NCBI GenBank assembly: GCA_964384465.1
Contig: CAYLLT010000020.1
Span: 2,488 to 66,487 of the forward strand
Source of the DNA: an uncultured Planctomycetales bacterium
GTDB taxonomy: Bacteria; Planctomycetota; Phycisphaerae; UBA1845; PWPN01
DNA: 64,000 nt
Direction: 5' to 3'
The first letter of the stretch is position 1. Each line of letters opens with the position of its first letter. The notes beneath the pieces were generated by a model. It searched no databases. It was not told where the DNA came from and worked only from the letters and a program-made list of their open reading frames with translations. This document shows positions 3,125 to 60,369 of the stretch, in pieces. The translations under genes and the position numbers were made by a program.

Positions 3125-3359
3125 GCAATCGATTCCGTACTCATACCGTCTGACATAACTCCGTGGTGGGACCGGTATCCCGCCGGTCTCCGCAGCGTTC
3201 TGTCAACCCCCCACTTCCTCTTCGCCAGTGGATGACGCTTCCTGACACGCATTCCGGCGGCTTCTGTGTCTTTTTTCCACCGCATCCGACGGGCCTCCCC
3301 CAAGGCCCGTGTGGTCTGGAGTCAGTGAGGCGAAGCGCGGTTCACAGCGCGTGCGCGAT

Positions 3360-6926: not shown

Positions 6927-6969
6927 GGGATAATTACCTATTCCTTGTCACGGATCAAAAAATCGCGGA

Positions 6970-9900
6970 TCAGTCCGCGCAATGCGGATTGTAATTGCTT
7001 GCCCCGCTGTAACAGCGCTGGAAATAGCCGTAGTCGTCGTTGTCACCGTCGCCGTCGCTGTCGACGTCGCACGCGGTGAACTGCGCGGGGGTGCATCCGG
7101 TTGGCGGCGGGCCGTAAATGGTCGGACCCGTCCGGCACAATTTGAATTGATTGTAGTCGTCCTGGTCCACGCGGCCGTTCAGATCGAAATCGAACCGCAG
7201 CGGCGGGCAGCCGGAAAGACCGGGCGGATCACCCGCCGGCGTCGTCGGGCACAAATCGTTGCAATCGGCCGTACCGTCGCTGTCGGTGTCGGTGTCCGGC
7301 GTGCCGCAGCCGCATTGACCCGGAGCGATCTTCCCCACATCGTTCGGACAGCCGTCGCCGCAGTTGGGCGTACCGTCGTTGTCGTCATCGGGACTGCTCA
7401 CGGTGAACGTGTTCGGACAATCACTGCCAATGTCGGCCGCGTCCTTGACCGTAACCGTCACCGTCGTATTTCCGAGACCGACCAGCGTCCCAACCAACGG
7501 GCTTTGCGTTTTCGTCAGCGAGCCGGCGGGCGTGCAATTGTCCGTCGCGGTGACATCGGCCGTAAAGTCCGGCACCGGCGCCTGACAATTGCCATCAGCG
7601 GGCGCGAACTGCGCCGGTCCGCACGACGAGATCGCCGACGCGGTCGTATCCACCACCGTCACGTCCACCGTGCAGTTGGCGGTATGCCCGTGCCCGTCAT
7701 CGGCCGTGACCGTGACCGTGTGCGCGCCGGGGCCGACGGGCGTGCCGGCCGGCGGATTCTGCGTCGTGAGCACGTTCGGATTGCACCCGTCGGAAGCACT
7801 CGCACCGCTCGCAAGCTCCGGGATCGCCGCCTGGCAATTGGCATCCGCGGAGATCGGCGCCGGCGCCGCCAGACACGTCACGTTCGGCGACAGCGTATCC
7901 TGCACGGTCAGCATACGCGACGCGGTCACGTTCGGCGGAGTGCCGCCCGGATGCGATGCCGTCCACGTCACCGTCGTCGTGCCCAGCGGCAGACACGCCG
8001 GAGCATCGTTGCCGATCGTCGTATCGTTATCACAGTGGTCTTGCCCCTGCGGTTGCGCCAGCCACGCCGCAACGACGGTGTCCGTCTTCGGCGTGCCACT
8101 GCTGCTCGGACTCGTGCAGCCCTGACATTCGACGATCAAGTCGCTCGGCAGATTCGTAATCATCAGCGGCGCGTCCTCGCTCACGACGATCATCCGTGTC
8201 GCCGTGCTGGGGTTGCCGGAAAGATCGGTGGCCGTATACACCGCGTGATACGTCCCCTCGACCTGCGTGTTGGGGAAGCCTTCCGGATAGCTCGGCGGCC
8301 CGACGGAGATCGCTCCGTCGCAACTGTCGCTCGCCGTCGCACCCTGCTCCACGTACTGATTGGGCTGATTGTTTTGGCAGGTAAAAGCATTGGGCGTGCC
8401 GCCGGTGATGGTGATCACCGGCCCGGTCACATCGTTGAGCGTCAAGGTCCGCGTGCACATCACCTGATTGTTCGCCGCATCCTTGACCGTGAGCGTCACT
8501 GTGTGCGGTCCCTTACCGGTGACCGTGCTGCCCGCCGTCGGGCTCTGCGTCCTGGTCAGCGAACCGCCGGCCGTGCAGTTGTCCGTAGCCGTCACGCCGG
8601 CCGTGAAATCCGGCACCACGGCCTGACAATTGGCATCGGCATTGACGGCCTGATTCGGACCGCAATCGGTAATGGTGGGAGCAGCGGCGTCATTCACTGT
8701 GAAGCTTTTCGTACACATCGCCGGGTTGTTGGCCACATCCTTGACCGTGATGGTCACGGTTGTAGCACCCAGGCCCACCAGCGTACCGGCAATGGGACTC
8801 TGCGTCCTGGTCAGCGAGCCGGACGGCGTGCAGTTGTCCGTCGCGGTCACGTCGCCGGTCATATCGGGAACGGCCGCCTGGCAACTGCCGTTCGCCGACG
8901 CGGATTGATTCGAGCCACAGGAGGTGATCGACGGAGCGGTGATGTCGTTCACGGTGAAACTCTTGTTGCACATCGCGCTGTTGTTCGCCGCATCTTTCAC
9001 GGTAATGGTCACCGTGGTCACACCCGCGCCGACCAGCGTGCCCGCCGTCGGGCTCTGCGTCTTGGTCAGCGACCCGGAGGCCGTGCAATTGTCCGTCGCG
9101 GTCACGTCGCCGGTCATGTTGGGCACCGCGGCCTGGCAACTGCCGTTCGCCGACGCTGATTGATTCGAGCCACAGGAGGTGATCGACGGAGCGGTGGTGT
9201 CGTTCACGGTGAAGTTCTTGTTGCAGATCGCGGAGTTGTTGGCGGCGTCCTTCACAGTGATCGTCACGCTGGTTACGCCCAGCCCAACCAGCGTGCCGGC
9301 AATGGGACTCTGCGTCCTGGTCAGCGAGCCGGACGCCGTGCAGTTGTCCGTCGCGGTCACGTCGCCGGTCATATCGGGAACGGCCGCCTGGCAACTGCCG
9401 TTCGCCGACGCCGACTGATTGGAACCACAGGACGTGATCGATGGGACGGTAGTATCGTTGACAGTGAAGCTCTTCATGCACGTGGCGGAGTTGTTCGCCG
9501 CATCTTTCACGGTAATGGTCACCGTGGTCACACCCGCGCTGACCAGCGTGCCCGCGAGCGGGCTCTGCGTCTTGGTCAGCGAGCCGGACGCCGTGCAATT
9601 GTCCGTCGCGGTCACGTCGCCGGTCATGTTGGGCACCGCCGCCTGACAACTGCCGTTCGCCGACGCTGATTGATTCGACCCGCAGGAGGTGATATTCGGC
9701 GGCGTGGTGTCGTTGCCGCCGGTCAACGTGAAGGCGCCGGTTCCCGTGACACGTTTGACCAGGATGTACGCCCGCCGACTCGCCACCGGCGTGTAGCAGA
9801 TCGATTCGTTGACGTTCGTGCCCACGTTGGCACTCGACGCGAGAATCACCGGGTTGCCTTTGGTGTCAGGGACGCTGTCGTAAACGTACAAATCGTAGTC

Positions 9901-11952
9901 GCCGCCGCTCATGCCGGTCAGGATGAACGCGACAGGCGTACCCGAGGTGAGGTCCATGTATCTTCCGGCGGCCCGCCGGTCAGTGACCAGCGAACCGAGC
10001 GAATCGCTCAGCGGGCTGATCAGCGGCAGCGTCAATGCATCGACCGCGGCATCCGCGTTGATCATCCCGTAGCCCTCGAACGTATCCTTGTTCTTTCCGG
10101 TAGTGGCGTTATTGGATGCCCGTTCGAGCGTCGGGTTGTTGGTGCTGACTTCGCGCGTTTGATTGGTTTCCGTGGCCGAGGCGCACAGCAGCATCTTCAC
10201 GAACAGCGCATCGGCTGACGAAGCGAAACTCCACGTATGACCCGCCTGCTGCCAGGCGTCGATCACCAGCGCAGCGCAGCCCGCCACGAACGGCGACGCC
10301 ATCGAAGTCCCGCTGATGTTCAGATAATCGTTGGCCACCTGATCGGACAAGGCCCCGTCGGCATCGCCATCATTGGAATCGATGGACATGATCTTGCTGT
10401 ACTTCGCGGTCACCGTGCCGCCGGGTGCGATCACATCCGGCTTGTAGTCCTCCGTGGCGTCGGGCACGTCGGTCCAGATCGATGTGTAGTCGGTGAGCTG
10501 GTTGATGTCATTCGCCGCGCCCACCGTGATGACTTTGCCCGCCCGGCCCGGGTCTGTGGTCTCTCCCGTAGGCCCATCGTTACCCATGGAATTGCAGACC
10601 ACGATGCCGTTGTCCACGGCGGTGTTGGCTTTGGCCCGAAGCGTGGTGTCCTCCGCACCGGGCGTGATCAAACCGATGCTCATGTTGAGCACCTTGATGT
10701 TGTGAGCCACCCGCTGCGTCACCATGTCGTCCAGCGCTGCGCCGATATCAGTGGTGCTGCCCGAGCCGGCATTGGTGAATACCTTGCCCCCCGCCCAGCG
10801 GCAGGCCGGAGCCACACCGCGAAACAGGTTGAAGCTGTCACCGACGCCGAAATTGGACACATCCGCCGAAACGGTGTTTGCGGCGGAGTAAGCCTTGCCA
10901 CCCGTGTTGCCGGTGTTAGCACTGTTGTATGAGGAGTAGAGGCGCGGTGCCCCGCTCGCCTGAGGGTTTGCCAGATTGTTGTTGGTTACCGAAATCGGAG
11001 AGCTAGAACTGGACAAGATCGATCCGATCGCAACGTAACCAAAGGAGCTGTTTACATAAGCTTGGCCGTGCTGAGCGCTGCGTCCACCGCCGGTCGCCCA
11101 GATCATGTTGCTGACCCAGTCAAACTGCGTGACGGCCGCCGGCAGCTCGTGCGGCGAGGGATAGAAGGATCCTGCCATGCTGGGGAATGTGCCCTGGTCC
11201 GTCCAGCGGATCGTCGTGGGATTGACCCCGGAAGCCGCCCCGGTGCCCAGAGCGATACCCGCTACGTGAGTGCCGTGCGACTGGAAACCAATTGGAGTCG
11301 CTGACGCATCGCTGGTGTAGTCGTGCCAATACTCCATGCGGCCCGCAAGGTCTGTGTGGCTGTCATCCACACCGGTGTCCACGATCGCAATCGTGATGCT
11401 GGTGTCGCCGTCATATCCGTTATTCCAAAGATACGGCCGCACGCGCCCGTTGCGGCAGGCCTTGTCCAGGTGCAACTGGATCGGCTGTGACTCGATCACG
11501 CCCAAGAGCGAGGGTCCGGCTCCCTGCACGGCGCCGCGAATCGTGCTCAAAGGGAGCGTGCCGTTCCATCCGTAGCTGACGCTCTTGTAGATGTGTGTAA
11601 TCCGGCCGCCGAGCTTGGCGAACTGATCGAGCTGCTGCTGCCGGATCTGCGCGGAAAAAACGAACTCGACGGAAACGCTTTCATCCACCGCCAGCGGCGC
11701 CGTGGCCGGATTCGCGCGGTTGTTTTCAAATTGCAGGACTTTCGTTTCAAGCCCGTCGTCGATCTGGTCTGAATTCGAGTCCGTTTCGAGGACGGCGGGA
11801 ATGGTGGGGCGGATCGCCGGTTCCGCCGGAGCGACAATCTGGTCAGCGGTGAGAGGGATTCCCGCCCGACTCACGCCGGCCGACAACAGCAGAAGGAACA
11901 CGCAGATGCCCGGCATCCATCCCCACCCGCATCGTGTCTTCGCAACACACAT
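6970..11952 (-). CDS. Secreted subtilisin-like serine protease (peptidase S8) with nine HYR/Ig-like repeats and a dockerin-like C-terminal module
   Basis: Catalytic motifs are IAIVDTGVDDSHTDL (Asp), HGTHVAGIA (His), NSMGNDG (oxyanion Asn) and SGTSMASPFVAG (Ser). The ~85-aa repeats read DTTxPxITSCGSNQSASANGSCQAAVP.MTGDVTATDNCTASGSLT.TQSP.AGTLV..G.TTVTITVKDAANNSA.C.K.FTVN. I prefer the ATG at 11952 (MCVAKTRCGWGWMPGICVFLLLLSAGVSRA) because it is preceded by GGAGGGAG. The ORF-track start is 11994. Confidence 0.9.
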   Translation of the reverse strand: MCVAKTRCGWGWMPGICVFLLLLSAGVSRAGIPLTADQIVAPAEPAIRPTIPAVLETDSNSDQIDDGLETKVLQFENNRANPATAPLAVDESVSVEFVFSAQIRQQQLDQFAKLGGRITHIYKSVSYGWNGTLPLSTIRGAVQGAGPSLLGVIESQPIQLHLDKACRNGRVRPYLWNNGYDGDTSITIAIVDTGVDDSHTDLAGRMEYWHDYTSDASATPIGFQSHGTHVAGIALGTGAASGVNPTTIRWTDQGTFPSMAGSFYPSPHELPAAVTQFDWVSNMIWATGGGRSAQHGQAYVNSSFGYVAIGSILSSSSSPISVTNNNLANPQASGAPRLYSSYNSANTGNTGGKAYSAANTVSADVSNFGVGDSFNLFRGVAPACRWAGGKVFTNAGSGSTTDIGAALDDMVTQRVAHNIKVLNMSIGLITPGAEDTTLRAKANTAVDNGIVVCNSMGNDGPTGETTDPGRAGKVITVGAANDINQLTDYTSIWTDVPDATEDYKPDVIAPGGTVTAKYSKIMSIDSNDGDADGALSDQVANDYLNISGTSMASPFVAGCAALVIDAWQQAGHTWSFASSADALFVKMLLCASATETNQTREVSTNNPTLERASNNATTGKNKDTFEGYGMINADAAVDALTLPLISPLSDSLGSLVTDRRAAGRYMDLTSGTPVAFILTGMSGGDYDLYVYDSVPDTKGNPVILASSANVGTNVNESICYTPVASRRAYILVKRVTGTGAFTLTGGNDTTPPNITSCGSNQSASANGSCQAAVPNMTGDVTATDNCTASGSLTKTQSPLAGTLVSAGVTTVTITVKDAANNSATCMKSFTVNDTTVPSITSCGSNQSASANGSCQAAVPDMTGDVTATDNCTASGSLTRTQSPIAGTLVGLGVTSVTITVKDAANNSAICNKNFTVNDTTAPSITSCGSNQSASANGSCQAAVPNMTGDVTATDNCTASGSLTKTQSPTAGTLVGAGVTTVTITVKDAANNSAMCNKSFTVNDITAPSITSCGSNQSASANGSCQAAVPDMTGDVTATDNCTPSGSLTRTQSPIAGTLVGLGATTVTITVKDVANNPAMCTKSFTVNDAAAPTITDCGPNQAVNADANCQAVVPDFTAGVTATDNCTAGGSLTRTQSPTAGSTVTGKGPHTVTLTVKDAANNQVMCTRTLTLNDVTGPVITITGGTPNAFTCQNNQPNQYVEQGATASDSCDGAISVGPPSYPEGFPNTQVEGTYHAVYTATDLSGNPSTATRMIVVSEDAPLMITNLPSDLIVECQGCTSPSSSGTPKTDTVVAAWLAQPQGQDHCDNDTTIGNDAPACLPLGTTTVTWTASHPGGTPPNVTASRMLTVQDTLSPNVTCLAAPAPISADANCQAAIPELASGASASDGCNPNVLTTQNPPAGTPVGPGAHTVTVTADDGHGHTANCTVDVTVVDTTASAISSCGPAQFAPADGNCQAPVPDFTADVTATDNCTPAGSLTKTQSPLVGTLVGLGNTTVTVTVKDAADIGSDCPNTFTVSSPDDDNDGTPNCGDGCPNDVGKIAPGQCGCGTPDTDTDSDGTADCNDLCPTTPAGDPPGLSGCPPLRFDFDLNGRVDQDDYNQFKLCRTGPTIYGPPPTGCTPAQFTACDVDSDGDGDNDDYGYFQRCYSGASNYNPHCAD
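8437..9711 (-). repeat. Tandem 255-bp coding repeats (five copies, four of them near-identical) encoding HYR-like domains
   Basis: The landmark gattgattcgagccacaggaggtgatcg (and variants) recurs at 8903, 9158, 9413 and 9668, exactly 255 bp apart. More diverged copies extend the array down to about 7410. Confidence 0.9.
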
Positions 11953-12162
11953 CCTGATACTCCCTCCGTAGGTCCTCCGGACACCTGTTTCCACTGATAC
12001 CGATGCTTTGGAACCGCCGCTGAACGGCTCATCCTGAAGGGAGTGTTTTCAGCCGTGCTGACTGGAGAATAGTATAGCAGATTGGAGCAGGTTTATAAAC
12101 AGAAAAATGTCAGGATAATGCTGGCGGAATGTATGACACTTGGGCGGGTTGCCTTTTCGATA

Positions 12163-12231
12163 GGACCGCGGCGTTTTATTGCCGCCAACCCGCGTCCGCA
12201 ACGCCAGAGCGGCGATAAATTGCCGCGGTCC
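12163..12231. repeat. REP-like imperfect hairpin (GGACCGCGGC...GCCGC / GCGGC...GCCGCGGTCC)
   Basis: Arms are at 12163-12186 and 12209-12231. Of 23 aligned arm positions, 20 pair (blocks of 10, 5 and 5). Confidence 0.55.
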
Positions 12232-12327
12232 TGTGGATAGGGAGCTCCCCGGACCCGCCTGAATTGTGAATGACCCGATAAAATTGGTGAACGCCTCGCC
12301 CACCTCATTTTGATTCCGGCCAGTCGT

Positions 12328-12392
12328 GTAGGGTGGGTCTTGACCCACCTTCGACAAATCACCCATTGCTGGTGGGTCAAGACCCACACTAC
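12328..12392. repeat. Two inverted copies of a 22-nt palindromic unit GTAGGGTGGGTCTTGACCCACC
   Basis: The unit at 12328-12349 matches its reverse-oriented copy at 12371-12392 at 21 of 22 positions. Each unit also contains the self-complementary GGTGGGTC..GACCCACC. Confidence 0.65.
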
Positions 12393-12408
12393 GAAACTCG
12401 CTTTCCGC

Positions 12409-12437
12409 TTGAACCCGTCCTTGCCTCAGTGTATATC
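12409..12437 (+). promoter_or_regulatory. Candidate sigma70-type promoter for the ORF6N gene
   Basis: TTGAAC (12409-12414), a 17-nt spacer, then TATATC (12432-12437). This lies 35 nt upstream of the ATG at 12473, which is preceded by AGGTGA. Confidence 0.4.
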
Positions 12438-12472
12438 TGGGCACGTAGATCAACCGAGAAATAGGTGAAACG

Positions 12473-13048
12473 ATGGCGGCTGACAGGCGGTCGCAGATTC
12501 CGCTGGGGCGAATCGAACGAAGCATTCTGCTCGTGCGCGGTCAGAGGGTCATGCTCGACGCCGATCTCGCCGCACTTTACGGCGTAGAAACGCGCGTGTT
12601 GAATCAGGCGGTCAAACGCAACCTCGGTCGGTTTCCGTCCGACTTCATGTTTCGACTGACGTGGGACGAAGCGGAAGCTTTAAGATCACAAATTGTGATC
12701 TTAAACGAGAACCCTTCCGGCCGGGGTAAACATCGCAAGTATCCACCCTATGTGTTTACAGAGCACGGCGCCATAATGGCCGCCAATGTGCTCAACTCCG
12801 CAAGAGCGGTCAAAGCCAGCATCTACGTCGTGCGCGCGTTCGTAAATCTTCGGCAGATGTTCGCATCGCACAAGGAGCTGGCCGCCAAGCTCGCAGAGTT
12901 GGAACGCCGATTGGAAAAACACGACGGCCAGTTAATCGCCCTCGTGGAGGCCATCCGGCAGTTGATGCAGCCCCCGCCCGATCCGCCACGCCGCCGAATC
13001 GGGTTTGCGACCGAGCTCGAAGGCAGGGCACGCAGAGCGAACAGGTGA
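12473..13048 (+). CDS. ORF6N (KilA-N-like) DNA-binding domain protein
   Basis: Family motifs are LVRGQRVMLDADLAALYGVETRVLNQAVKRNLGRFPSDFMFRLT, LRSQIV, YPPYVFTEHGAIMAANVLNS and VRAFVNLR, followed by a C-terminal coiled-coil-like tail. Confidence 0.8.
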   Translation: MAADRRSQIPLGRIERSILLVRGQRVMLDADLAALYGVETRVLNQAVKRNLGRFPSDFMFRLTWDEAEALRSQIVILNENPSGRGKHRKYPPYVFTEHGAIMAANVLNSARAVKASIYVVRAFVNLRQMFASHKELAAKLAELERRLEKHDGQLIALVEAIRQLMQPPPDPPRRRIGFATELEGRARRANR

Positions 13049-13082
13049 AGATCGCGGCGATACGCGCGTTGCGTTGTGAACG

Positions 13083-13194
13083 ATCGAACCTGTCCCGTTC
13101 GTTTTCCGGTCCGAGTTGCGTCTCCTTTGTCCTTCCCGGGCGGAGCAACGCTTGCGTCGAGTAGGAAAGAGTAGGAAAGCGGGACAGGTTCGAT
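13083..13194. repeat. Long-range perfect 15-bp inverted repeat (ATCGAACCTGTCCCG / CGGGACAGGTTCGAT) with an 82-nt loop
   Basis: Arms are at 13083-13097 and 13180-13194. The loop contains the tandem AGTAGGAAAG x2. The element sits between the convergent ORF6N and higA genes. Confidence 0.6.
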
Positions 13195-13247
13195 TCTTGA
13201 TAGGCGAAAAGAGTATACGCAGCCCCAAACTCGTCTTGGCGTTTTGA

Positions 13248-13670
13248 TCACTCGATGAAAACAGACGCATCGAGCTTGAACCGCGCGGCCAGCTTCTTGA
13301 TCTGCGATTTCGACAAGGCGCGATCGCCCTTCAGGAACATCGACACGGCCGATTCGCTGCCGATGATGCGGCCGATCGCGGCCTGACTCAGCTTGTTCGC
13401 CTCCATCAACGCCCGGAGCGCTTCCCGCGGCGTCATGGCCTCGTCGATGGCGTGATGCTCCTCCTCGTACTTGTTCACCAGGACGATCAGGGCGTCAAGG
13501 TAATCGCCCGCGCCGCTGTCCAGATCGCGGCCCATCAACTCCGAGATGATCGCCGCTCCGGCTTCGTGCTCGTCGTCGTTCTTGATCGTCTTGAGCGGGA
13601 AACGTTGCACCAACTCCATGTAGGTGTCGCGCTCCTGCCGCTTGTTTTTAGACCTCGTCCGGGTGGGCAT
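13248..13670 (-). CDS. higA: Type II antitoxin HigA (XRE-type HTH)
   Basis: The C-terminal HTH region ...LSQAAIGRIIGSESAVSMFLKGDRALSKSQIKKLAARFKLDASVFIE resembles the E. coli HigA (YgjM) tail ...KLTLEHAKKLATRFGISPALFID. The gene lies 10 nt downstream of higB on the same strand, in the toxin-first order typical of hig loci. Confidence 0.8.
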   Translation of the reverse strand: MPTRTRSKNKRQERDTYMELVQRFPLKTIKNDDEHEAGAAIISELMGRDLDSGAGDYLDALIVLVNKYEEEHHAIDEAMTPREALRALMEANKLSQAAIGRIIGSESAVSMFLKGDRALSKSQIKKLAARFKLDASVFIE

Positions 13671-13680
13671 AAGAACTCCG

Positions 13681-13998
13681 CTAAAACAACTTCTTCCACA
13701 ACTTCTTGTCGTATTCCTTGTGGTCCATCACCGCCTCGATTTTCACCGTCTGCCGCTTGTAATCGACATGGGCAAGGATGCGGTACTTGTTCCCGCCAAT
13801 GTCGAATACGGTCGCAGTCCTCCCCGTGTCGCCGGTGGCCACGTCGGTCTGGCCGAACGTCGCCTTCGTCTCCTGGAAATTCTGCCAATGAGCCTTCCGG
13901 GCCAGTTTGAACCAATTCTCGAACGCCGCCGCGTGTGGACTGCGCTCCGGTTTGGCCGCATAAAAGTCTCTCAATTTCCTTCGGCTGATCACGTTCAC
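13681..13998 (-). CDS. higB: Type II toxin HigB (RelE/ParE superfamily mRNA interferase)
   Basis: 105 aa with a GTG start. FDIGGNKYRILAHVDYKRQTVKIEAVMDHKEYD matches the E. coli HigB (YgjN) core FNVGGNELRVVAMVFFESQKCYIREVMTHKEYD. Confidence 0.85.
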   Translation of the reverse strand: MNVISRRKLRDFYAAKPERSPHAAAFENWFKLARKAHWQNFQETKATFGQTDVATGDTGRTATVFDIGGNKYRILAHVDYKRQTVKIEAVMDHKEYDKKLWKKLF

Positions 13999-14006
13999 GC
14001 CTTCAC

Positions 14007-14062
14007 ATTATGCGAAGTATTCTGGCCCCTGTCAAGAGCAAGCCTTCTCAAAATGCGAAGTA
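14007..14062 (-). promoter_or_regulatory. higBA promoter with two copies of a 10-bp putative operator
   Basis: On the minus strand: TTGACA (14035-14030), a 17-nt spacer, then CATAAT (14012-14007). The GTG start follows only 8 nt after the -10. The direct repeat ATGCGAAGTA occurs at 14010-14019 (overlapping the -10) and at 14053-14062 (upstream of the -35). Confidence 0.55.
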
Positions 14063-14098
14063 AAGCGGGTCGCCGCCCAAGATTTGAGGAATTCCTTG

Positions 14099-14126
14099 CA
14101 TCTGCGAATCATCTGCGCCATCTGCG
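14099..14126. repeat. Triple direct repeat of CATCTGCG
   Basis: Copies are at 14099-14106, 14110-14117 and 14119-14126, in intergenic sequence. Confidence 0.5.
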
Positions 14127-14373
14127 GATTGCTCCCCACGGAACGCGCAACGTGTTCTGTCAAAGAATGGGGCCAAGGCGGTACTCGTGTGCAGTGTCAC
14201 TGGAGAGACCGGGCGTGGTGCCGTCGAAAAATAAAAACAGCGAAACGAAGCCGTGGATTACCCGTTCGCGCACTGCTTTGCCGGCGCACCCGAACGGAAC
14301 ACTTGTCGGACTTTTCGCGACCGGCGCAAGGACGTATGGCGATGATCGAACGGTCGCCGGTTGAAACGGTTGT

Positions 14374-17300
14374 TCAGGACGAAGCTTTCTTCTCCGCGGC
14401 TCGGCGTCTCTGCGGAGAATTCAGCGCGGCCAGCAGTTGTTCGGCCTTGGCGCGGGTGGCTTCGATCTTCGGCAGGCGGATCTCCGCGTAGCCGGTGATC
14501 GTTTCCACGCTCTTGAGCACGTCGACGTATTGCCGGTAAGTCACCTCGTTGTCGAAAGAGAAGCCATCCACCACGCCCTCATACCACATGAGCAGCTCGC
14601 GATCCTCCCGATGCCACCACGGCATGGCTTTGCGCAGGAAGCGCAAACTGCGGAGGCAGTAGAGCATCCAGTGCGGCGGGCTGATGTCGATCTGCTGGCC
14701 GAAGAAGCGCGGGTGAAACGTCCGTCGATAGCGGATGCGGTCGCCGTTGGAGGGGTTGATGTTGTAGCGGTGCCGGTCGCGGCGCATCTTCTCGTAGCTG
14801 GTGAGCAGATGGGCGACGAAGAACTCGTCCTTAATGAGCATGAGCTTGGCCAGGTTCCAGACCACCGCCCGCGTGGCGGCGAACTCGTATCGCTCGTGGT
14901 CGGCCAGGAACATCCGGCGCACGCGCTGGACGTACCGCTGGGCGTAACGGACGCCGCCCCACTGGACCAGGTCGTAGATGCGGACGGCGATGTCCTGCAT
15001 GGTCTGACGGTCGAGTTCGCGGCAGGCGCGGAGCGTGGTGTAGACCATGTGCTTGTACGATCGCGCGAGCTTGGTGTCGGGCAGGCGGCGCTTGCCGGCC
15101 GGGCGCGTGCCCTCGTGGCGCAGGGCGCGGCGCTTGCCGAGCAGGCGCATGTTGAGGTAAGCGGCTTTCTCGCGAACGGTACGGGCCAGCGACGGCTCCG
15201 GCTCGTGCTCGGCGAACAGGTGCGGATGGCTGACCAGCTTGCGACCGATGTCGAACGCCCGCAGGTTCTTCTTGAAATCGGCGCGGATGGTGTTGCGGAT
15301 GCCCTCCTTCATCGCCTCCAGTGAGACGGGGATCAAACCGCGTTGAAAGGCGACGCCGAGCATGGTGATGTTGGCATAGAGCTTGGTGCCGAAGATCCGC
15401 TCGCACAGCGAGGTGATGCGGGCGGAGAAATAGCGGTCGCTGCGCGTCGCCTGGCGGAGGGCCCGCTCGAGTTCATCGACTTTGAATTCGTCGAGGCCCA
15501 TCAGCGTGCGGATGGTCGGCGTGCGATCGGTGTTGATGACCGCGGCGGTGCGATCGGCGGATGAGATCCGGAAGCCAGCATCTGGATCTACGGCGCGTGC
15601 GGCCTCGAGAAGGTCGATGCCCAGCAGGAGGTCGGCTTTACCGTAGGGGACGGTCATACTGACGGGGAGAGAGGGCGAGTGGGCGAGGGGGCGAGGGGGC
15701 GAGGGGCTCTTGCTGAAGATGAGTTGCGAGTAGACGCCGCCGTTGCGGATGGCCAGGCCCTTCTTGTCGCTGAACTGGACGTGGTAGCCCTCGTGCTGGC
15801 CGGCGTGAACGAGGATGCTGGTGGCCGTGCCGATGCCCATACCGCCGACGCCGGCGATCCAGGCCCGCCAGACGTCGCCCGCGAAGTCGATGACCGGCTC
15901 GGGGATGTCCTCCAGCGTGATCTTGTGGCCGCGAGGCGTGGGCGGGTGTTTGCGGGTGACAATCACTTCTTCGAAGGATGGGCACGCATCGAGCCGCGCG
16001 CACGCGCCGTCGTTGACGCACCAGGACAGATCGGTCTGAATCTTGGGGCCGTAGTTCGTCTGCTCGATGGTCAGGCCGGGGCAGCCGGTTTTGTTCGTGC
16101 ACTCCAGGCAGAACTCGCACACTTCGGGCGTGACGTTCATGTAGACCTTTTTGCGGACGAACCCGCGGCGACTCTGCTCGGCCCGTTCGTGGCCCATCCG
16201 GCGGCGGTGATAGGTGATGCCGCATTCCTTGTCGGCGATGATGATCTTGACGCCGTCGGCGAGGATGGTCTTTTCGAGCAGGGCTTTGTAGCCCTCGCGG
16301 TCTTCCGGATCCACGCGGACGACCGGACTCTTCCCGCCGGTGATGGCGCGCGCGATCGTCTCGATGTCCTGCGACTGGATCGGGCGGTCGAGCAGGTCGG
16401 CATCAAGCGCGGGCAGCGGCTGATGGCCGGTCATGGCCGTCGTGCCGTTGGCGAGAATGATGTAGGTGAGGTCCTGCCGCCCGGCGATCGAGTTGCTGAT
16501 CGCGGCCGAGCCGGAGTGAAAGAACGTCGAGTCGCCCATGAAGACGACCTGCTTGTTGCGGATGAACGGGTCGATACCGCTGCCGGTCCCGCCGCCGAGG
16601 CCCATGCCGGAGTAGTTGTGCATGAGCGGGGCGTTCGGCTCGAACATCAGCATGGTGTAGCAGCCGGTGTCGCCGTGGAAGACGAGATCGATGGCCCCGC
16701 GCTTGTGGTGCTTGCGCATGTAGGCTTCATCAGCAAACTGCTGTTTGACCTGGAGCAGCACGTTGGACGAATCGCGGTGCGGACAGCCGGGGCAGAACGT
16801 GGGCGTGCGGGCGGGGATGCTCATCTCGATCTTCGCGGTGTCGGAGATGATGCGCAGCTCGGTCTCGATGCCTGCTGCCGCGCGGCGGGCGAGCGGCGAT
16901 TCGATGGCCCGCAGGAAACGCCCCAGTCTGTCGGCGACGATGGAGACATTAAGCCCCAAAACCGAAGGGAATCCGCTGCCGCCACCGGGAAACTGCTTGC
17001 CCCAGATCTTGCTCACCCGTCTCCCATTCGCCTGCGCATAGCGGATGGCAATCTCCGCGATCTGATCCTCGATGAACGAGCGGCGTTCCTCGACGATCAG
17101 CACGTGCTCGAATCGGGCCAGCAGCGGTTCGATCTGCCGGCGGTCGAGCGGGTAGGTCAGCGCGAGTTTGAAGACCGGCACCTCACCGGCGAGGCCGACG
17201 TCATGCAGGGCCTGCACGACATATTGATGGGCCAGACCACTGCTGACGATCAGCACCTCGTTCGTAGGCGCGTCGTCGAGTTGATTGAGGCCGATTCGCT

Positions 17301-34914: not shown

Positions 34915-35973
34915 TTAAAGGCGCTGTGCGGGCGTGACCCCGCGCGAACGACGGAGCAACGGGAGTGCAATAAGCAGCATCAGCCCGCTAGCGGGCTCGG
35001 GAACTTCGGCGATGCGGAAACCAATACCTCCGTCCTCTCCTGGCAATATGGCGTAACTGCTCATGAAAGCCCCTGTCCATGTATTAGAGCCGCCGAAAGA
35101 TCCGCCACGGTGTTCGTGCGACTTACCGGGAACAACTGCCTCATTCCACTCCCAGACGTTGCCTCCTTGATCGAATGTGTTGTATGGGCTGCTTGAGTTT
35201 GTGAAAGCACCCACCTCGGTCCGGTAGTAGGGCGGACCAATGGTATAGTTACCGATGACGGCATTCACATTGTTTCCAGGATCGGGATTGAGAAGCGCAT
35301 TTGCAGGTGGATTATTGGTTCTAGTTGGGTATTCCCAGTAACCCGCTCCTCCGGGTTTCTGAGGATCGAAATAAGCGGCCTTGTACCATTCGTCTCTAGA
35401 CGGGATAACATAACGGGCATTGGCGTTGCGGGTGACCTGCAATAAGTCAGCCTCTGTATTTTTTCCGATCAGCGTGTATGACCCATCCTCTGTCGTCGTA
35501 GCATCTTGCGCGCCATTGGGTTGGCCATTGTTCAACCAATTATTGAAACGAGCTGCGTCGCCCCAGCTCACGAAATTGACGGGGCGGTTGGCTCGGTCTG
35601 GCGCGACCGTGTAGACGTAAGGACTTGCCAACGTGCCGGAGCCAGCGCGTTGGATTTGACAACCTAGTCCAGATGTCATGCCACCGCTATACAGGTTGTG
35701 AGGATCTCCCCCTGCCGCAACTGAGTTGAGGAATTGGGTATACTGGCCGGCCGTTATCTCGAATTTGCCGATCTCGTAGCTGTGGTTGACTGCGCCATAT
35801 CCAGGAGTCGCATACCGGGGATCTGGAGCATTTCCTACATTTCCCACGGGCACGAACTGCAGGCTGGTTTGCCCGATCGGCATGTTGAACACGTCCGCTG
35901 ATGCGGCACTGGCGAACAAGGATGTGAATGCAGAGATTGCGCAGGCCGCGCGGGCATTTCGTATGATGGACAT
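34915..35973 (-). CDS. FGE-sulfatase (SUMF1/C-type-lectin fold) domain protein with a PEP-CTERM sorting signal
   Basis: The ATG at 35973 is preceded by GGAGGAG. The signal peptide is MSIIRNARAACAISAFTSLFASAASA. Motifs include YEIGKFEITAGQYTQFLN, NFVSWGDAARFNNWL, GGNVWEWNE and RGGSF. The C-terminus VPEPASGLMLLIALPLLRRSR is a PEP-CTERM signal. Confidence 0.8.
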   Translation of the reverse strand: MSIIRNARAACAISAFTSLFASAASADVFNMPIGQTSLQFVPVGNVGNAPDPRYATPGYGAVNHSYEIGKFEITAGQYTQFLNSVAAGGDPHNLYSGGMTSGLGCQIQRAGSGTLASPYVYTVAPDRANRPVNFVSWGDAARFNNWLNNGQPNGAQDATTTEDGSYTLIGKNTEADLLQVTRNANARYVIPSRDEWYKAAYFDPQKPGGAGYWEYPTRTNNPPANALLNPDPGNNVNAVIGNYTIGPPYYRTEVGAFTNSSSPYNTFDQGGNVWEWNEAVVPGKSHEHRGGSFGGSNTWTGAFMSSYAILPGEDGGIGFRIAEVPEPASGLMLLIALPLLRRSRGVTPAQRL

Positions 35974-36122
35974 GCTTTTCTCCTCCAGCCGGACGTGAAT
36001 GCTTTTCCGGCCCCATTCTACACGCTGGGCTGGGAGGCACAAGCTTCCGTTTTGAAGAATGGCCGCTAATTCACAGTGCGGGTAGCATCGGTCCTCAGAA
36101 ACACTCGATGGAGGGCTATTCT

Positions 36123-36644
36123 ATGCGAAAACCGCGCATTCTCGCCGTTTTGCCCTTGCTGTTCATCCCCTCGGCAGCCGCCCTCGCCGACGCTACAGCC
36201 ACACTCTCGGGCGTCGATGTACTCTTCTCTCCGAACGGTGGCTGTCAGGCTCGAATCGTTGCTGAACTAGCGAAAGCGAAGAAGACCATCCGCATCCACG
36301 CGTACAGCTACACTGACGCGAAGATCGCGAAGGCGCTGCTCGATGCGAAGAAACGCGGCGTCACGTGTGAGGCGATACTCGATAAGTCGAACAAGACCGC
36401 CAAGTACAGTGCGGCCACGTTTCTGAAGAATCAGGGCATCCCCTGCCTGATCGACGATCGACACGCCATCGCACACAGCAAAATCATCATCATCGACGAC
36501 GTGACTGTGGTCACCGGCTCGTACAACTTCACGAAGAACGCGGAGGAGAACAACGCGGAGAACATGCTCGTGCTCGCGGGGATGCCGGACGTGGCCAAGG
36601 CATACGTCGAGAACTACAAGCGGCACCGGGAGCATGCGCCGTAG
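36123..36644 (+). CDS. Secreted phospholipase D-superfamily nuclease (Nuc-like, single HKD motif)
   Basis: The signal peptide is MRKPRILAVLPLLFIPSAAALA. The HKD motif reads AHSKIIIIDD...GSYNFTKNAEENNAEN. The size (~173 aa) matches single-HKD Nuc endonucleases. Confidence 0.8.
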   Translation: MRKPRILAVLPLLFIPSAAALADATATLSGVDVLFSPNGGCQARIVAELAKAKKTIRIHAYSYTDAKIAKALLDAKKRGVTCEAILDKSNKTAKYSAATFLKNQGIPCLIDDRHAIAHSKIIIIDDVTVVTGSYNFTKNAEENNAENMLVLAGMPDVAKAYVENYKRHREHAP

Positions 36645-48103: not shown

Positions 48104-48177
48104 CGAGGCCGACGGGGCTCGAACCCGCAACCTTCGGATCGACAGTCCGATGCTCTAACCAATTGAGCTACGGCCCC
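48104..48177 (-). tRNA. tRNA-Asp (anticodon GTC)
   Basis: The reverse complement folds as GGGGCCG-TA-GCTC-AATTGGTTA-GAGC-A-TCGGA-CTGTCGA-TCCGA-AGGTT-GCGGG-TTCGAGC-CCCGT-CGGCCTC-G. CCA is not encoded. Confidence 0.9.
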
Positions 48178-55522: not shown

Positions 55523-55586
55523 AGGACGATGACCGGTCAGCGCGTGTGTTCAACGACCGACCGCCTCGCTGAATTCGCTGAACAGG

Positions 55587-56588
55587 TCAAATCATTGCCC
55601 CCTTCTCTACAAGACTACAGGCCACCGCAATGCGTTCTGCGAGTTGCTTGAATTGCTCGTAGCACTCTGTGACTGCAGCTCCGTGGCCGCCGATCGCCCC
55701 ATCCGCAGGTTTGAGAAAAAACATCGGCTTTCTCGCATCTTGGGCAAGCGGCATGAGGCTCTTGAAATGCTTGATCATGGCCAGTTGATGTTGTTCCTCA
55801 GAAAGTAACTGCTCACCAAGCACTTCGTGCACATAGGTTTCCGGAATTCGATCTGCCCATCTTTTGTAAGCTTTTACCGGGCGATTGCTGCGAACCGAGG
55901 GGTTTAGTACCACATATCCGATTGGATGCATATCTCCACTCGGTACGATCAGGTCGGCAGGCACCGTATTGTAGGATTTTCTCTTACTCCACCCTTCGCG
56001 CCAGTCGCGCAGCGTGGGACCGAGGTTGCGCAAACCCTGTAAAGAGAATAAGTCTGCGCCGAGTGGAATGACAACAAAATCGCTGGCGACGAGAGCGGCA
56101 CGATTCATTGCTCCGATGTTCGGCCCCACATCTATGAGTGCGACATCAGCTTGACATTTCTTCCCGGCCTCGACGGCAATGCGGTAGAAAGCTGTCATGA
56201 CGCGGAAAGCATCCGCTGCATCTGGTCGTATATCACTCTGGCAATCTCGCCATGCTTGTGAGAGGCGATCCTCGAACGCGCTGAGCCCCAGGTCGCCGGG
56301 GATGAGACTGAGCCCGTCCTCAAGCGATCTGGGCTGAATTGACTGGATATCACCAAGGCGTTCACTCATCTGGTCAATCGCACCAAGGATTGTGTTCGGA
56401 TGAGAGCCATCAGGCCACAGCTTCTCGAGTTCGTCCTCTTCGAGAAACGCGCTGGTTAAATTCGATTGGGGATCCAGATCGATAGTAATCACCCGATGTC
56501 CCAGTTCTCGGAACATCCACGCAAGATGATAGACGAGGGACGTTTTTCCCACACCGCCTTTGTTATTAAAAAACGTGATAGTCTTCAC
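55587..56588 (-). CDS. ParA/MinD-superfamily ATPase with deviant Walker A and a ~120-aa C-terminal extension
   Basis: Motifs are FFNNKGGVGKTSLVYHLA, TIDLDPQSNLT and DVALIDVGPNIGAMNRAALVASDFVVIPLGADLFSLQGL. The GTG start overlaps the stop of the upstream gene (GTGA). Confidence 0.8.
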   Translation of the reverse strand: MKTITFFNNKGGVGKTSLVYHLAWMFRELGHRVITIDLDPQSNLTSAFLEEDELEKLWPDGSHPNTILGAIDQMSERLGDIQSIQPRSLEDGLSLIPGDLGLSAFEDRLSQAWRDCQSDIRPDAADAFRVMTAFYRIAVEAGKKCQADVALIDVGPNIGAMNRAALVASDFVVIPLGADLFSLQGLRNLGPTLRDWREGWSKRKSYNTVPADLIVPSGDMHPIGYVVLNPSVRSNRPVKAYKRWADRIPETYVHEVLGEQLLSEEQHQLAMIKHFKSLMPLAQDARKPMFFLKPADGAIGGHGAAVTECYEQFKQLAERIAVACSLVEKGAMI

Positions 56589-57772
56589 AAGCGTCCTCGA
56601 ACGATGGCAGCAAAATGGTTTGTACCCACGTCAAACTCGATGGGAGGACTGTTGTTACGATCCATTTCTTTCTGGGCGATCGCAATGCCTCTGCCAAAGC
56701 GATTGACGAATCCGAGAATCTTCGCGGCCTCGGCCAGAATCGGATTCCTATAAGATGTACCATATGGAAAGTTATCTAACGAAAGGTCACCGTAAAGTGA
56801 TCCAGGATTATGAATCTCAAGCCGATCGTCAAAATGGTTGATCATGGTGGGAGTTGTGGAGCCCTCATAATTACGATGGATTACGGCGTTCATGAACAAT
56901 TCGTGAAGCGCGATTGACGGGAATGCGTATACCGTCGCATCTGTTAAGTCGTTCCTGCGGACGGGGCGCGGTTCCATTAGGCGCTGCGCGAGTAGGTCTA
57001 ACTCTCGCATTACAAGCAGTAGATCGCCGGTGATCCGTGATTCGGCCACAACGTCGTCTCCCGCGGAGGGACCGTCGTAGTGAACATATTGTATGTATGC
57101 TCCAGGGAAAAAAGAGAGGGCATCTTTGCCAAACAGCAAGATAGCGGCGTTTGTCGGGCGATCAATGCGTGTGTCGTACAGCCGCAAAGCTGCCAATTGC
57201 TCTTCGGTTGTTCGTTGGTTCTCATCCAGCACTTCACGCGCGACGGCATTCGGCAAATAGTTGAACTGGAAAAGATCGAGAGACAGGTCGTCGAGTGTCG
57301 CTTCAGGGCAGGCGCGCGCATCCCACGTTCTGGCGCGATCGATCCGGCGCTCGGATAACCGGCGTTCTTCCTCGATTGTCGCAACGCCCCGCCGCGGACC
57401 GACGCGGATATAGGTGATACCTTTATAGCGCACGGGTGGTGAGGTCGAAGGGAACACCTCCACTACGGCGACGGCAATGCCCTGAAACTCAATCTTATCC
57501 ACAAACATCAGTGGCTGGGGAATGATCCGGCCGTTATCCCGGTGGGACGCGAGGTTCACGAGTAATTGTTCGGTAATGGGCACTCCCGTAGGTTGGCCTT
57601 TGTCGTCTACGCCGATGATCAGATAGCCGGGTAGCCGATGATCGGGCAAGTCATTCGCGAAAGCACATATCGCTTCACAAAACTTGTCGGTGTCCGAGAC
57701 AGACTGTGTGCGTTCAACACGGTCTGTTTCACACTCCCGAAGAAGTTGTTCCAGTTGTGCGGAGTCAATCAT
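56585..57772 (-). CDS. Schlafen/AlbA_2-type putative DNA-binding domain fused to an HATPase_c_4-like ATP-binding domain
   Basis: The N-terminus ETDRVERTQSVSDTDKFCEAICAFANDLPDHRLPGYLIIGVDDKG...VRYKGITYIRVG is AlbA_2-like. The C-terminus LHELFMNAVIHRNYEGS...LEIHNPGSLYG...SYRNPILAEAAKILGFVNRFGRGI is HATPase_c_4-like. The ATG lies 24 nt after the icd stop. Confidence 0.7.
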   Translation of the reverse strand: MIDSAQLEQLLRECETDRVERTQSVSDTDKFCEAICAFANDLPDHRLPGYLIIGVDDKGQPTGVPITEQLLVNLASHRDNGRIIPQPLMFVDKIEFQGIAVAVVEVFPSTSPPVRYKGITYIRVGPRRGVATIEEERRLSERRIDRARTWDARACPEATLDDLSLDLFQFNYLPNAVAREVLDENQRTTEEQLAALRLYDTRIDRPTNAAILLFGKDALSFFPGAYIQYVHYDGPSAGDDVVAESRITGDLLLVMRELDLLAQRLMEPRPVRRNDLTDATVYAFPSIALHELFMNAVIHRNYEGSTTPTMINHFDDRLEIHNPGSLYGDLSLDNFPYGTSYRNPILAEAAKILGFVNRFGRGIAIAQKEMDRNNSPPIEFDVGTNHFAAIVRGRL

Positions 57773-57796
57773 TTTCGTACGCGGTATTCTATCACA

Positions 57797-59125
<1,329 letters not shown>

Positions 59126-59259
59126 TGCTTTCCTCGCCACGTCTCGTGAAACGCAAATAGCCGCATGCTTTAGCCTGCGCGGTGCTGTCGCCGAGGAGAA
59201 CGTTCCCCACTGCGGGATCGCCGCGCGGGTTAAAACCCGCGGCTGGATATTCAAATGGA

Positions 59260-60369
59260 CTATAGCAATCCGACTAATGTTCCGCAAACCGTTTCCACTT
59301 CGCGCTCGGTGAGATGCCCGTGGAATGGCAGAGCGATGGTGCGATCCGAGAGGGCTTCGCAGATGGGGAAATCGCCGGTTTTGTGGCCGAACTGCTCGAC
59401 GTAAAACGGCTGGAGATGGATCGGCGTGAAATAGTTGCTACAGCCGATGCCTTTCTCACGCAGCGCGATCAGGATGCGGTCGCGGTCGGCGCGCGTGTAG
59501 CGATCGTCGAGGCGGACCACCATCACGAACGGACTGATGACGCAATCGGGGTGGATCTTTTGCAAACGGATGCGGTTATCGCCGCCGAGCCGCTCGACGT
59601 AATAACCGGCGACGCGGCGGCGGTTCGCGAGAATCTCCTCGATCCGATTCATCTGGGCGATGCCCAGCGCGCAATTGATCTCGCTCAGTCGGAAGTTGTA
59701 ACCCAGCCGCTCGTGTGCCAGCCAGCCGCCGCCTTCGCCGCGGCCTTGATTACGCATTGAGACCACCCGCTTGTGCAGCTTCTGGTCGTCCGTGACGATC
59801 ATGCCGCCTTCACCGGTGGTCACCTGCTTATTCGGATAGAAGCCAAATACGCCGACTTCACCCAGCGCGCCCGCCTTGCGGCCCTTGTATTCCGCGCCGA
59901 GCGCCTCGCACGAATCTTCGATGACCCGCAGCTTCCGCTGCCGCGCCAGCTCCAGAATCGGACCCATCTCCGCCGGCTGGCCAAAAACGTCAACCGGCAG
60001 GATCGCCCGGGTCCGCGGCGTAATGGCCCGCGCGATGCGGTTCGGATCGATGTTCCAAGTGTCCGGGTCGATGTCCACAAACACGGGCCGTGCCCGCTCG
60101 AACAGAATGCAGTTCGCCGAAGCGATGAACGAGAAGGGCGTGGTGATGACCTCGTCGTCCGGCCCGATCTCCATCGCCCGGATGCACAGGTGCAGGCCGC
60201 TGGTGCCGCTGTTCACCGCCGCCGCATATTTCGTGCCGGTATGGGCGGCCAGCAGCCGCTCGAACTCGACCAGCCGCGGGCCCAGCGAAAGCTGATCGCT
60301 GAGCGTGGCCTCGCCCACCGCGCGGCGTTCGGCGTCCGTGATATCCGGGCGAGAGAGCGGAATGTCCAT
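59260..60369 (-). CDS. DegT/DnrJ/EryC1/StrS family PLP-dependent sugar aminotransferase
   Basis: It begins [18 protein letters not shown]. Further motifs are [11 protein letters not shown] and [19 protein letters not shown] (PLP lysine context). The ATG at 60369 is preceded by GGAGG. Confidence 0.85.

Follow-up and report, generated by a model that had tools for sequence, protein, structure and literature searches.

A minimal Schlatpase paired with a ParA-like ATPase: a widespread two-gene cassette with a candidate defence-type function

Introduction

Schlafen proteins are antiviral tRNases in humans, their role in bacterial defence was shown only in 2025-2026, and more than half of the prokaryotic Schlafen proteins carry a GHKL ATPase. 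ATPases of the ParA/MinD class (SIMIBI) are so far known for positioning cargo on DNA, and to our knowledge they have had no part in bacterial immunity. Here, we analyze a two-gene cassette in which members of both families are joined. It is located in a stretch of 64,000 nucleotides (hereafter the window) from an uncultured Planctomycetales bacterium, corresponding to positions 2,488 to 66,487 of contig CAYLLT010000020.1 (GenBank assembly GCA_964384465.1, forward strand). Gene 1 (positions 56585-57772 of the window, minus strand) encodes a predicted Schlafen/AlbA_2-GHKL protein and gene 2 (55587-56588, minus strand) a predicted ParA-like ATPase. A first-pass annotation, made from the sequence alone, had singled out the pair as a candidate defence or addiction module.

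The name Schlatpase was defined for the combination of a Schlafen/AlbA_2 domain with a GHKL ATPase, and for RzAgo ATP-driven tetramerisation and tRNA cleavage were described, with E314 and N318 as ATP/Mg ligands (bioRxiv 10.64898/2026.05.29.728809). The same architecture is found under the name Slfn-HisKinase as the commonest class of prokaryotic Schlafens, which protect against phage through tRNA cleavage, and 69.6% of Schlafen genes in general lie within 10 kb of a defence gene (PMC13056530). The canonical Schlafen nuclease motif is E-x4-(E/D)-x-K (PMC13056530; bioRxiv 10.64898/2026.05.29.728809), and its lysine is present in all characterised Schlafen nucleases.

A dyad of a HEPN protein (MAE_18760 family) and a ParA/Soj-like ATPase was predicted to be a toxin-antitoxin (TA) system, in which the HEPN RNase would act as toxin and the ATPase as antitoxin (Anantharaman, Makarova, Burroughs, Koonin, Aravind 2013, Biol Direct 8:15; PMC3710099). 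In some cases, HEPN proteins of the MAE_18760 family carry a fused Schlafen domain (PMC3710099). Two-gene defence systems built of a nuclease and a nucleoside triphosphatase (NTPase) include Gabija, Hachiman, AbpAB, Azaca, and PD-T4-8, and both Schlafen effectors and ParA-type NTPases go unmentioned in a survey covering 16 nuclease-NTPase systems (bioRxiv 10.1101/2025.07.10.664194).

Gene 1 Encodes a Predicted Minimal Schlatpase

The 395-aa product of gene 1, starting with ATG, combines two Pfam domains in the order that is characteristic of Schlatpases. The Schlafen/AlbA_2 domain (PF04326, SLFN_AlbA_2) covers residues 15-127 (57392-57730, minus strand) and is matched with an E-value of 1e-16 and 61.6 bits against a gathering cut-off of 25.3. 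It is followed by HATPase_c_4 (PF13749), which matches residues 309-390 (E 2e-15, 57.1 bits against a cut-off of 26); with the conserved residues included, the GHKL ATPase domain extends over residues 291-390 (56603-56902, minus strand). Both domains had been named in the first-pass annotation, as had the lack of a winged-helix tail, and the open reading frame (ORF) does stop right after the GHKL domain, so that compared with two canonical homologues the C-terminal helix-turn-helix (HTH) tail is absent. Based on this domain content, gene 1 is classified as a predicted minimal Schlatpase. A structure model (predicted local distance difference test, pLDDT, 78) retrieved 3LMM as the best Foldseek match, followed by 2KYY, by the N-terminal domains of SLFN14/11/12 and by the catalytic and ATP-binding (CA) domains of histidine kinases and PDK domains.

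In an alignment of 34 gene 1 homologues, residues E15, E20, T22, K30, and D41 are invariant. The first three belong to the variant nuclease motif ETDRVERT (57707-57730, minus strand), which reads E-x4-E-x-T. The threonine T22 is near-universal across 84 loci, with ERK occurring at that position only in two of them (L051 and L063), and a homologue on a Runella plasmid retains the lysine (EESQNIEWK). The CAFAN box at residues 36-40 is essentially invariant as well (C36 and N40 in 34/34 homologues, A37 and F38 in 33/34, position 39 being A or S), and after it comes the stretch G49-Y-L-x-x-G-V-D. In the ATPase domain, E291, N295, N322, G324, G328, and G360-R-G362 are invariant. E291 and N295 lie in the N-box ELFMN (56888-56902, minus strand), and their E-x3-N spacing equals that of the RzAgo ligands E314 and N318.

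Gene 1 resembles the Schlatpase supradomain proteins, of which the SLFN-pAgo (Schlafen-prokaryotic Argonaute) RzAgo is the studied example, in its domain order, in its SAFAN-type box, here CAFAN, in the two acidic residues of the motif and in the GHKL E-x3-N signature, and its residues 15-383 match the Schlatpase part of a PADLOC pAgo model. It differs from the known Schlatpases in that it stands alone, without an Argonaute, NACHT, restriction-modification or HTH module, in that its motif is ExxxxExT rather than ExxxxExK, and in that its homologues, in a small sample, appear to lie mostly outside defence islands. A further difference is an obligate ParA-like partner, which is mentioned neither in PMC13056530 nor in bioRxiv 10.64898/2026.05.29.728809.

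Gene 2 Belongs to a Separate Clade of ParA/Soj-Fold ATPases

Gene 2 (333 aa, GTG start) is matched by the Pfam families AAA_31 (E 8e-27) and CbiA, and it contains the sequence hallmarks of a ParA/MinD-type ATPase, as the first-pass annotation had recognised from KGGVGKT and DLDPQSN. The deviant Walker A motif NNKGGVGKT (56541-56567, minus strand) comprises the signature lysine K10 and the P-loop lysine K15, each of which is kept in 33/34 homologues. In the Walker A'/switch I motif DLDPQSN (56460-56480, minus strand), D37, D39, P40, Q41, S42, and N43 are invariant, and the same is true for D153, V154, G155, and P156 of the Walker B region ALIDVGPN (56118-56141, minus strand).

The closest relative of known structure is 3PG5 (DIP2308), an uncharacterised protein of Corynebacterium diphtheriae. 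It was matched over the full length in a profile search (residues 1-325, E 1e-31), in which Soj was matched in fragments only, and it was also the best Foldseek match of the AlphaFold model of gene 2 (pLDDT 87), followed by Soj, ParA, and McdA with template modelling (TM) scores of 0.72-0.81, normalised to target length. The C-terminal extension of about 120 aa that had been assumed in the first-pass annotation does not hold: the model aligns in full length with Soj/ParA/McdA, and residues 198-333 are the ordinary second half of the ParA fold with clade-specific inserts. An alignment of ten clade members revealed the motifs PGDxxLSxFED and SLxPxAQ and an invariant W196. The NCBIfam partition models (ParA, RepA, SopA) score far below their cut-offs for gene 2, the best with 66.8 bits against 348, and ParA_partition with 62 against 180. 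We assign gene 2 to a separate DIP2308 (3PG5)-like clade of ParA/Soj-fold ATPases, as delimited here. With ParA/Soj, McdA, and MinD it shares the fold, the deviant Walker A motif with its signature lysine and the aspartates of Walker A' and B, but it has no partner of the ParB, McdB or MinE type and carries the clade-specific inserts and motifs.

The Two Genes Are Linked, Co-evolve and Can Be Fused

Both genes are intact and co-oriented on the minus strand, which the first-pass annotation had left unstated, and they overlap by four bases, GTGA (56585-56588), in which the stop codon of gene 1 and the start codon of gene 2 are merged, just as had been read in the first pass. The overlap indicates translational coupling; a Shine-Dalgarno-like motif, GAGGA, is present 6 nt ahead of the GTG of gene 2.

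A scan with gene 1 over one genome per species returned at least 576 loci, and pairing was scored on the best 80 of these (45-74% identity). A gene 2 homologue lies directly downstream on the same strand in 71 of the 80, and conversely gene 1 is found directly upstream in 78/80 metagenome loci that had been retrieved with gene 2. The tblastn matches to both genes are separated by 0-56 nt in nearly all loci, with 166 nt in L081. Hundreds of homologues with 60-80% identity exist for either protein, many of them with the same contig sizes, and a profile search over 1.84 billion representatives resulted in 663 clusters at E <= 1e-30. Across 67 loci, the pairwise identities of gene 1 and of gene 2 correlate with r = 0.84. 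Moreover, a natural fusion of both proteins exists: P0373 (731 aa), which is one of the 663 clusters, contains a Schlatpase, 37% identical to gene 1 and with the motif ESERLERT, and a ParA-like ATPase, joined in the same order as in the cassette. An assembly error can be dismissed for this fusion, since 15 contigs that stem from independent samples encode the identical protein.

The pair thus shows near-obligate linkage, it co-evolves, and it is kept together in hundreds of bacterial species. The co-occurrence of the two families beyond the source genome, on which the first-pass annotation had staked its proposal, is borne out by the linkage in both directions, by the correlated identities and by the recurrent fusion. 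No third gene is conserved beside the pair, the largest family of neighbours being present in 5/84 loci.

Some relatives of gene 1 were found without a ParA-like partner. In L054 (11137-11999), an overlapping HEPN gene and a 156-aa ORF are present, in L053 (1793-2497) a HIT-domain gene follows, and L072 and L077 encode longer versions of gene 1 (463-464 aa), with a type I methylase gene upstream.

Relatives of Gene 2 Are Combined With Other Toxin-Type Domains

More distant relatives of gene 2 have 26-33% identity over 89-98% of its length, or 41-44% identity to DIP2308, and share the clade-specific motifs along their full length. In six loci (L167, L170, L171, L173, L174, and L177) a SIR2_2 gene lies directly downstream of the ParA-like gene, usually with a 4-nt overlap; the carriers are three Actinomycetota contigs and plasmids of Spirosoma, Salmonella Infantis, and Vibrio ponticus. 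These dyads have in common with the cassette the extended ParA-like clade (27-33% full-length identity), the shared motifs and the tight 4-nt overlaps. The SIR2 partner, a domain known as an abortive-infection effector, matches the ThsA and Dsr models. Unlike the cassette, the dyads have a predicted NADase as effector and the ParA gene in first position, and those that are plasmid-borne lie beside methylases, helicases, and serine recombinases. In a literature search we found no name and no paper for ParA-like + SIR2_2 dyads, and PADLOC 2.0 holds no full-length model for the SIR2-linked ParA-like relatives.

On Burkholderia glumae plasmids a HEPN_RiboL-PSP gene, at most a candidate member of the MAE_18760 family, lies directly downstream of a ParA-like ATPase with 26.5% identity to gene 2 over 98% of its length. 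The ParA-like protein P0438 is fused to a RES domain, and a clade member of Corynebacterium epidermidicanis sits between CHAT, MmeI, and GmrSD genes and Fic/HTH genes. Others are solo, or lie beside small serine recombinases or Abi genes. The combination of a single conserved NTPase with exchangeable toxin-type partners recurs in many defence and toxin-antitoxin families, and the suggestion of a defence or addiction module made in the first pass gains support from the SIR2, HEPN, and RES domains with which relatives of gene 2 are partnered.

Further observations concern the same clade. ParA-like relatives occur in 210 PLSDB records, including 80 of Escherichia, 50 of Salmonella, and 24 of Klebsiella. 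On the Salmonella Infantis plasmid NZ_CP148876.1 (L174, 2905-5919) a DNA methyltransferase, the ParA-like ATPase and the SIR2 gene stand in a row; the dyad itself occupies 96094-98012 of NZ_CP148876.1. Four proteins, P0399 (595 aa), P0370 (508 aa), P0367 (432 aa), and P0494 (442 aa), are extended at the C-terminus by 100-270 aa to which Pfam has no match, and these parts may be additional unrecognised effector domains. The closest structural matches of both genes originate from C. diphtheriae, and a common operon of DIP2308 (3PG5) and DIP2311 (3LMM) was considered and rejected: on the contig L168 the two genes, at 4170-5279 and from 12329, are separated by about 7 kb, in which seven unrelated genes are located.

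Comparison With Predicted and Described Two-Gene Systems

Like the HEPN dyad predicted in 2013, for which we know of no test, the cassette is a two-gene operon of a ParA/Soj-like ATPase and an RNase-type effector, the latter being a prediction here. It is unlike that dyad in that its effector is a Schlatpase without a HEPN domain, is itself an ATPase, and is encoded by the first gene. With Gabija, Hachiman, AbpAB, Azaca, and PD-T4-8 the cassette shares a predicted nuclease plus an auxiliary P-loop NTPase within a single operon, with variable order of the genes. The NTPases of Gabija/Hachiman-type systems belong to helicase, ABC or other P-loop classes, none of them ParA/MinD-type (SIMIBI), and these systems target DNA and have no Schlafen effector.

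No system of PADLOC-DB 2.0 is matched in full length by both genes; gene 1 matches only the Schlatpase-like parts of the pAgo and Aga models, and gene 2 only the Walker A region of PDC-M28B. A literature search, which had no reach into subscription journals, found no paper on a Schlatpase + ParA or SIR2 + ParA pairing. The statement of the first-pass annotation that the pairing is not a named system is in line with both results. Since a HEPN + ParA/Soj dyad was predicted in 2013 (PMC3710099), this kind of system is not wholly new. The components and the general logic are known, and it is the pairing of a Schlatpase with a ParA-like ATPase, how broadly it occurs, its fused form, and the connection through one clade with SIR2, HEPN, and RES that are undescribed as far as we found.

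Phylogenetic Distribution and Genomic Context of the Pair

The pair is present in at least 12 phylum-level groups, including Planctomycetota, Myxococcota, Acidobacteriota, Verrucomicrobiota, Pseudomonadota, and Bacteroidota, and furthermore Omnitrophota, Latescibacterota, Deinococcota, Bacillota, and Actinomycetota. Among the carriers in Myxococcota is Sorangium sp. So ce1099, whose chromosome is complete (NZ_CP150359.1, with the pair at about 12.2258-12.2279 Mb) and in which both proteins are 59% and 61% similar to those of the window, compared with 58% and 65% in Phycisphaeraceae, presumed to belong to the same phylum as the source genome. This cross-phylum similarity, equal to that within the phylum, indicates transfer between phyla. 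The G+C content of the pair is below that of its flanks in 61/67 loci, with a median difference of -5.6 points. Close relatives of the pair were found neither in PLSDB plasmids nor in IMG/VR viral contigs nor, at >30% identity, in INPHARED phages.

The nearest upstream ORF is co-oriented with the pair in 29/34 loci and the nearest downstream ORF in 16/34, as judged by crude ORF calling. The upstream bias has a one-sided binomial p of 2e-5 against a baseline of 50% but only of 0.03 against a baseline of 70%. In half of the loci (17/34) the upstream ORF ends <100 nt from gene 1, often at 5-35 nt. The upstream genes are mutually unrelated; among others, four Planctomycetota genomes have icd in this place, three Betaproteobacteria (L056, L073, and L074) have gyrA, and the fusion (L179-L182) is preceded by proS. 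This position behind the ends of co-oriented genes suggests read-through expression or a preference for insertion there.

The arrangement of the window, with icd directly upstream of the pair, recurs in L004, L005, and L010. Among these four Planctomycetota genomes the identity is only 60-63% for icd and 58-76% for the proteins of the cassette, and different genes follow downstream. Because the arrangement is shared although icd has diverged this far, it can be old and the dip in G+C can persist, and low G+C as proof of a recent acquisition is weakened accordingly.

In L041, a WOR-3 metagenome-assembled genome, the pair (region of about 3142-14783) is directly preceded by an ORF for a SNF2/ResIII helicase with NOV_C, i.e., of HmaA architecture, and a scan of the neighbours gave strong matches to HmaA, HmaB, and HmaC. 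The pair of L041 may lie inside an Hma defence operon.

Position and Composition of the Cassette in the Window

The cassette is the sharpest compositional break of the window, in agreement with the first-pass annotation: its G+C content is 53.1% compared with 61.5% for the whole window, and no other window of equal size has a lower value, the distance to the mean being about 4 standard deviations. The magnitudes given there, 37-52% inside and 65-75% in the flanks, were overstated, as 60-nt lines range from 40 to 65% in the cassette (mean 53%) and from 48 to 72% in icd (mean 62%). At third codon positions, gene 1 has a G+C content of 0.57 and gene 2 one of 0.55, compared with values of 0.75-0.82 for six genes of the flanks.

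The directly upstream, co-oriented gene (57797-59287, minus strand) is assigned to the isocitrate/isopropylmalate dehydrogenase family by Pfam (Iso_dh, E 2e-89) and is referred to as icd (isocitrate dehydrogenase). Its stop codon occupies 57797-57799, and the spacer to the start of gene 1 (57773-57796, minus strand) is exactly 24 nt long, the distance given in the first pass. Such a spacer would not fit a separate promoter for gene 1. On the other side, a spacer of 64 nt (55523-55586) separates the stop codon of gene 2 from that of a convergent HEAT-repeat gene. Neither the 24-nt nor the 64-nt spacer was found to contain promoter-like or terminator-like sites.

A ParB gene, a repeat array, an integrase, a transposase, a tRNA, and Rfam elements are all absent within about 8 kb of the cassette, which extends the earlier statement that ParB, centromere-like array, integrase, and transposase are missing, and no flanking repeats or tandem array were found beside the pair. 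A remnant of a prophage or mobile element is unsupported, as integrase, transposase, flanking repeats, and an adjoining tRNA are lacking and no relatives were found in IMG/VR viral contigs or, at >30% identity, in INPHARED phages.

Some features of the surroundings are given for completeness. The ORF of icd, as listed, starts with TTG at 59287 and overlaps by 28 nt (59260-59287) with the end of the upstream ORF of a DegT-family aminotransferase; since the Pfam match opens only at residue 81, the true start of icd is probably further downstream. The sole tRNA in the last 19 kb of the window, tRNA-Asp(GTC) at 48104-48177 (minus strand), does not adjoin the cassette. The second-lowest G+C patch of the window (34915-36644, about 54-55% in 1-kb windows) contains a gene for a secreted protein ending in a PEP-CTERM-like anchor (34915-36042, minus strand) and a small secreted ORF (36108-36644, plus strand) that by eye resembles a phospholipase-D-type nuclease.

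Discussion

We consider it moderately probable that the cassette is a self-contained effector-plus-NTPase conflict module with a defence-type function. In the proposed mechanism, the proteins of gene 1 and gene 2 would be co-produced and would form a complex, in which the ParA-like ATPase serves as the regulatory subunit, an ATP-dependent dimer switch that restrains or licenses the effector. Phage infection, foreign DNA, nucleoid damage or the loss of the module might be the cue by which the effector is freed or licensed. The Schlatpase would then cleave RNA, most likely tRNA, and lead to growth arrest in the manner of abortive infection, from which protection against phage would be predicted. 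The gene 2 clade would work without ParB, and it is paired or fused with interchangeable toxin domains, i.e., Schlatpase, SIR2, HEPN, and RES.

Several points weigh against a conflict module. Gene 1 departs from the canonical nuclease motif, its lysine being replaced by the threonine T22, and D56, the third acidic residue, is kept in 85% of the 34 homologues. With ExxxxExT in place of ExxxxExK, the Schlafen domain may lack activity or may act on another substrate. The conservation of both proteins, 45-80% identity across phyla, is unusually high for immune genes. Two enterobacterial Schlafen-HisKinase proteins gave no protection against the phages tried (PMC13056530). Among the four nearest ORFs, two per side, of 26 loci (n=104, a small sample without background control), most are housekeeping genes and few are defence-like (Hma components, AbiD, and methylases), so that the Schlatpase-ParA clade, at this sample size and without that control, and unlike Schlafen genes in general, appears to have no clear association with defence islands. 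As no close homologue was found on plasmids, phages or viral contigs, an addiction role on mobile elements is unsupported for this clade. Lastly, the function of the pair, and that of the whole ParA-like clade, is a prediction from sequence.

The same observations can be read differently. The cassette might be a pure toxin-antitoxin or addiction module without a dedicated anti-phage role, in which the Schlatpase is the toxin and the ParA-like ATPase the antitoxin, acting through a nucleotide-dependent conformational change or phosphorylation, and which persists because its loss is harmful. The same model was put forward for the HEPN + ParA/Soj dyad (PMC3710099), and it would fit two coupled, stand-alone genes that are scattered among housekeeping genes rather than in defence islands, as well as the pairing of related ParA-like genes with the classical TA toxin domains HEPN and RES and the presence of gene 2 relatives on plasmids. 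The Schlatpase-linked clade itself, however, was not found on plasmids or phages (PLSDB, INPHARED, and IMG/VR), and the putative antitoxin is a large, highly conserved ATPase rather than a small and labile protein. That both partners are ATPases speaks more for regulated signalling than for simple neutralisation, and the stable fusion P0373 is hard to square with a differential stability of toxin and antitoxin. We regard this explanation as rather unlikely, yet still appreciable; it also overlaps with the conflict module proposed here, many supposed TA systems having later proved to be abortive-infection defences.

Improbable in our judgement is a cellular role outside of any conflict, in which gene 1 would be a nucleic-acid-binding AlbA_2/GHKL regulator or adaptor with a degenerate nuclease site that is positioned or regulated on the nucleoid by the ParA-like ATPase, e.g., as an accessory factor of transcription or chromosome organisation. 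The invariant threonine in place of the catalytic lysine, the frequent annotation of AlbA_2-HATPase_c_4 proteins as DNA-binding or transcriptional regulators and the high sequence conservation would agree with such a role. So would the frequent position behind co-oriented housekeeping genes (icd, gyrA, and proS), which suggests co-transcription with core genes, and the icd linkage retained in four Planctomycetota genomes despite an icd identity of only 60-63%. It is less readily reconciled with a patchy occurrence across at least 12 phyla, with cross-phylum similarity as high as that within a phylum and with a G+C content systematically below the flanks. Nor is there a consistent neighbour gene or pathway, while the acidic metal ligands E15 and E20 are invariant, the HTH tail typical of such proteins is missing from gene 1, and elsewhere the members of the ParA-like clade are associated with the toxin domains SIR2, HEPN, and RES. 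A degenerate or orphan chromosome or plasmid partition locus, with gene 2 as ParA and gene 1 in place of ParB as the centromere-binding partner, could draw on the ParA fold and deviant Walker A motif of gene 2, on its weak, sub-threshold NCBIfam matches to RepA and ParA models and on the nucleic-acid-binding domain of gene 1. All NCBIfam partition models remain far below their cut-offs (ParA_partition 62 bits versus 180), and ParB, a repeat array, a replication gene, and a plasmid link are lacking. In addition, the gene order is opposite to that of par operons, the closest structure, 3PG5, is not a partition ParA, and relatives pair with SIR2, HEPN, and RES instead of ParB. We therefore reject a partition locus as highly improbable, consistent with the first-pass annotation, which had judged an ordinary partition role unlikely; the absence of a third conserved gene and of close plasmid or phage homologues points in the same direction.

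A wider proposal can be made, which we put forward tentatively and rate as plausible but short of probable. The DIP2308-like ParA clade would be a large unrecognised immune or toxin family, in which at least four effectors that can replace one another, namely the Schlafen-GHKL nuclease, the SIR2 NADase, the HEPN RNase, and the RES NADase, have a SIMIBI ATPase as their common switch. The Schlatpase form would be the most widespread in environmental bacteria, would have an altered active site (ExxxxExT) and would travel as a promoter-less passenger at the tails of housekeeping operons.

The cassette points to a possible way in which stand-alone Schlatpases are controlled, i.e., by a dedicated ParA-like ATPase that is sometimes fused to them. 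The association of the ParA-like clade with SIR2, HEPN, and RES suggests a modular switch of general use, similar to the STAND, ABC/OLD, HerA, and SMC partners of other systems. Sorangium sp. So ce1099 is a cultured carrier of the Schlatpase pair, and the cousins on plasmids of Salmonella, Escherichia, and Klebsiella, with SIR2 as probable effector, offer hosts for standard phage and toxicity assays. If the ParA-like partner does sense the state of the nucleoid or foreign DNA by binding DNA in an ATP-dependent manner, bacterial immunity would gain a new principle of sensing.

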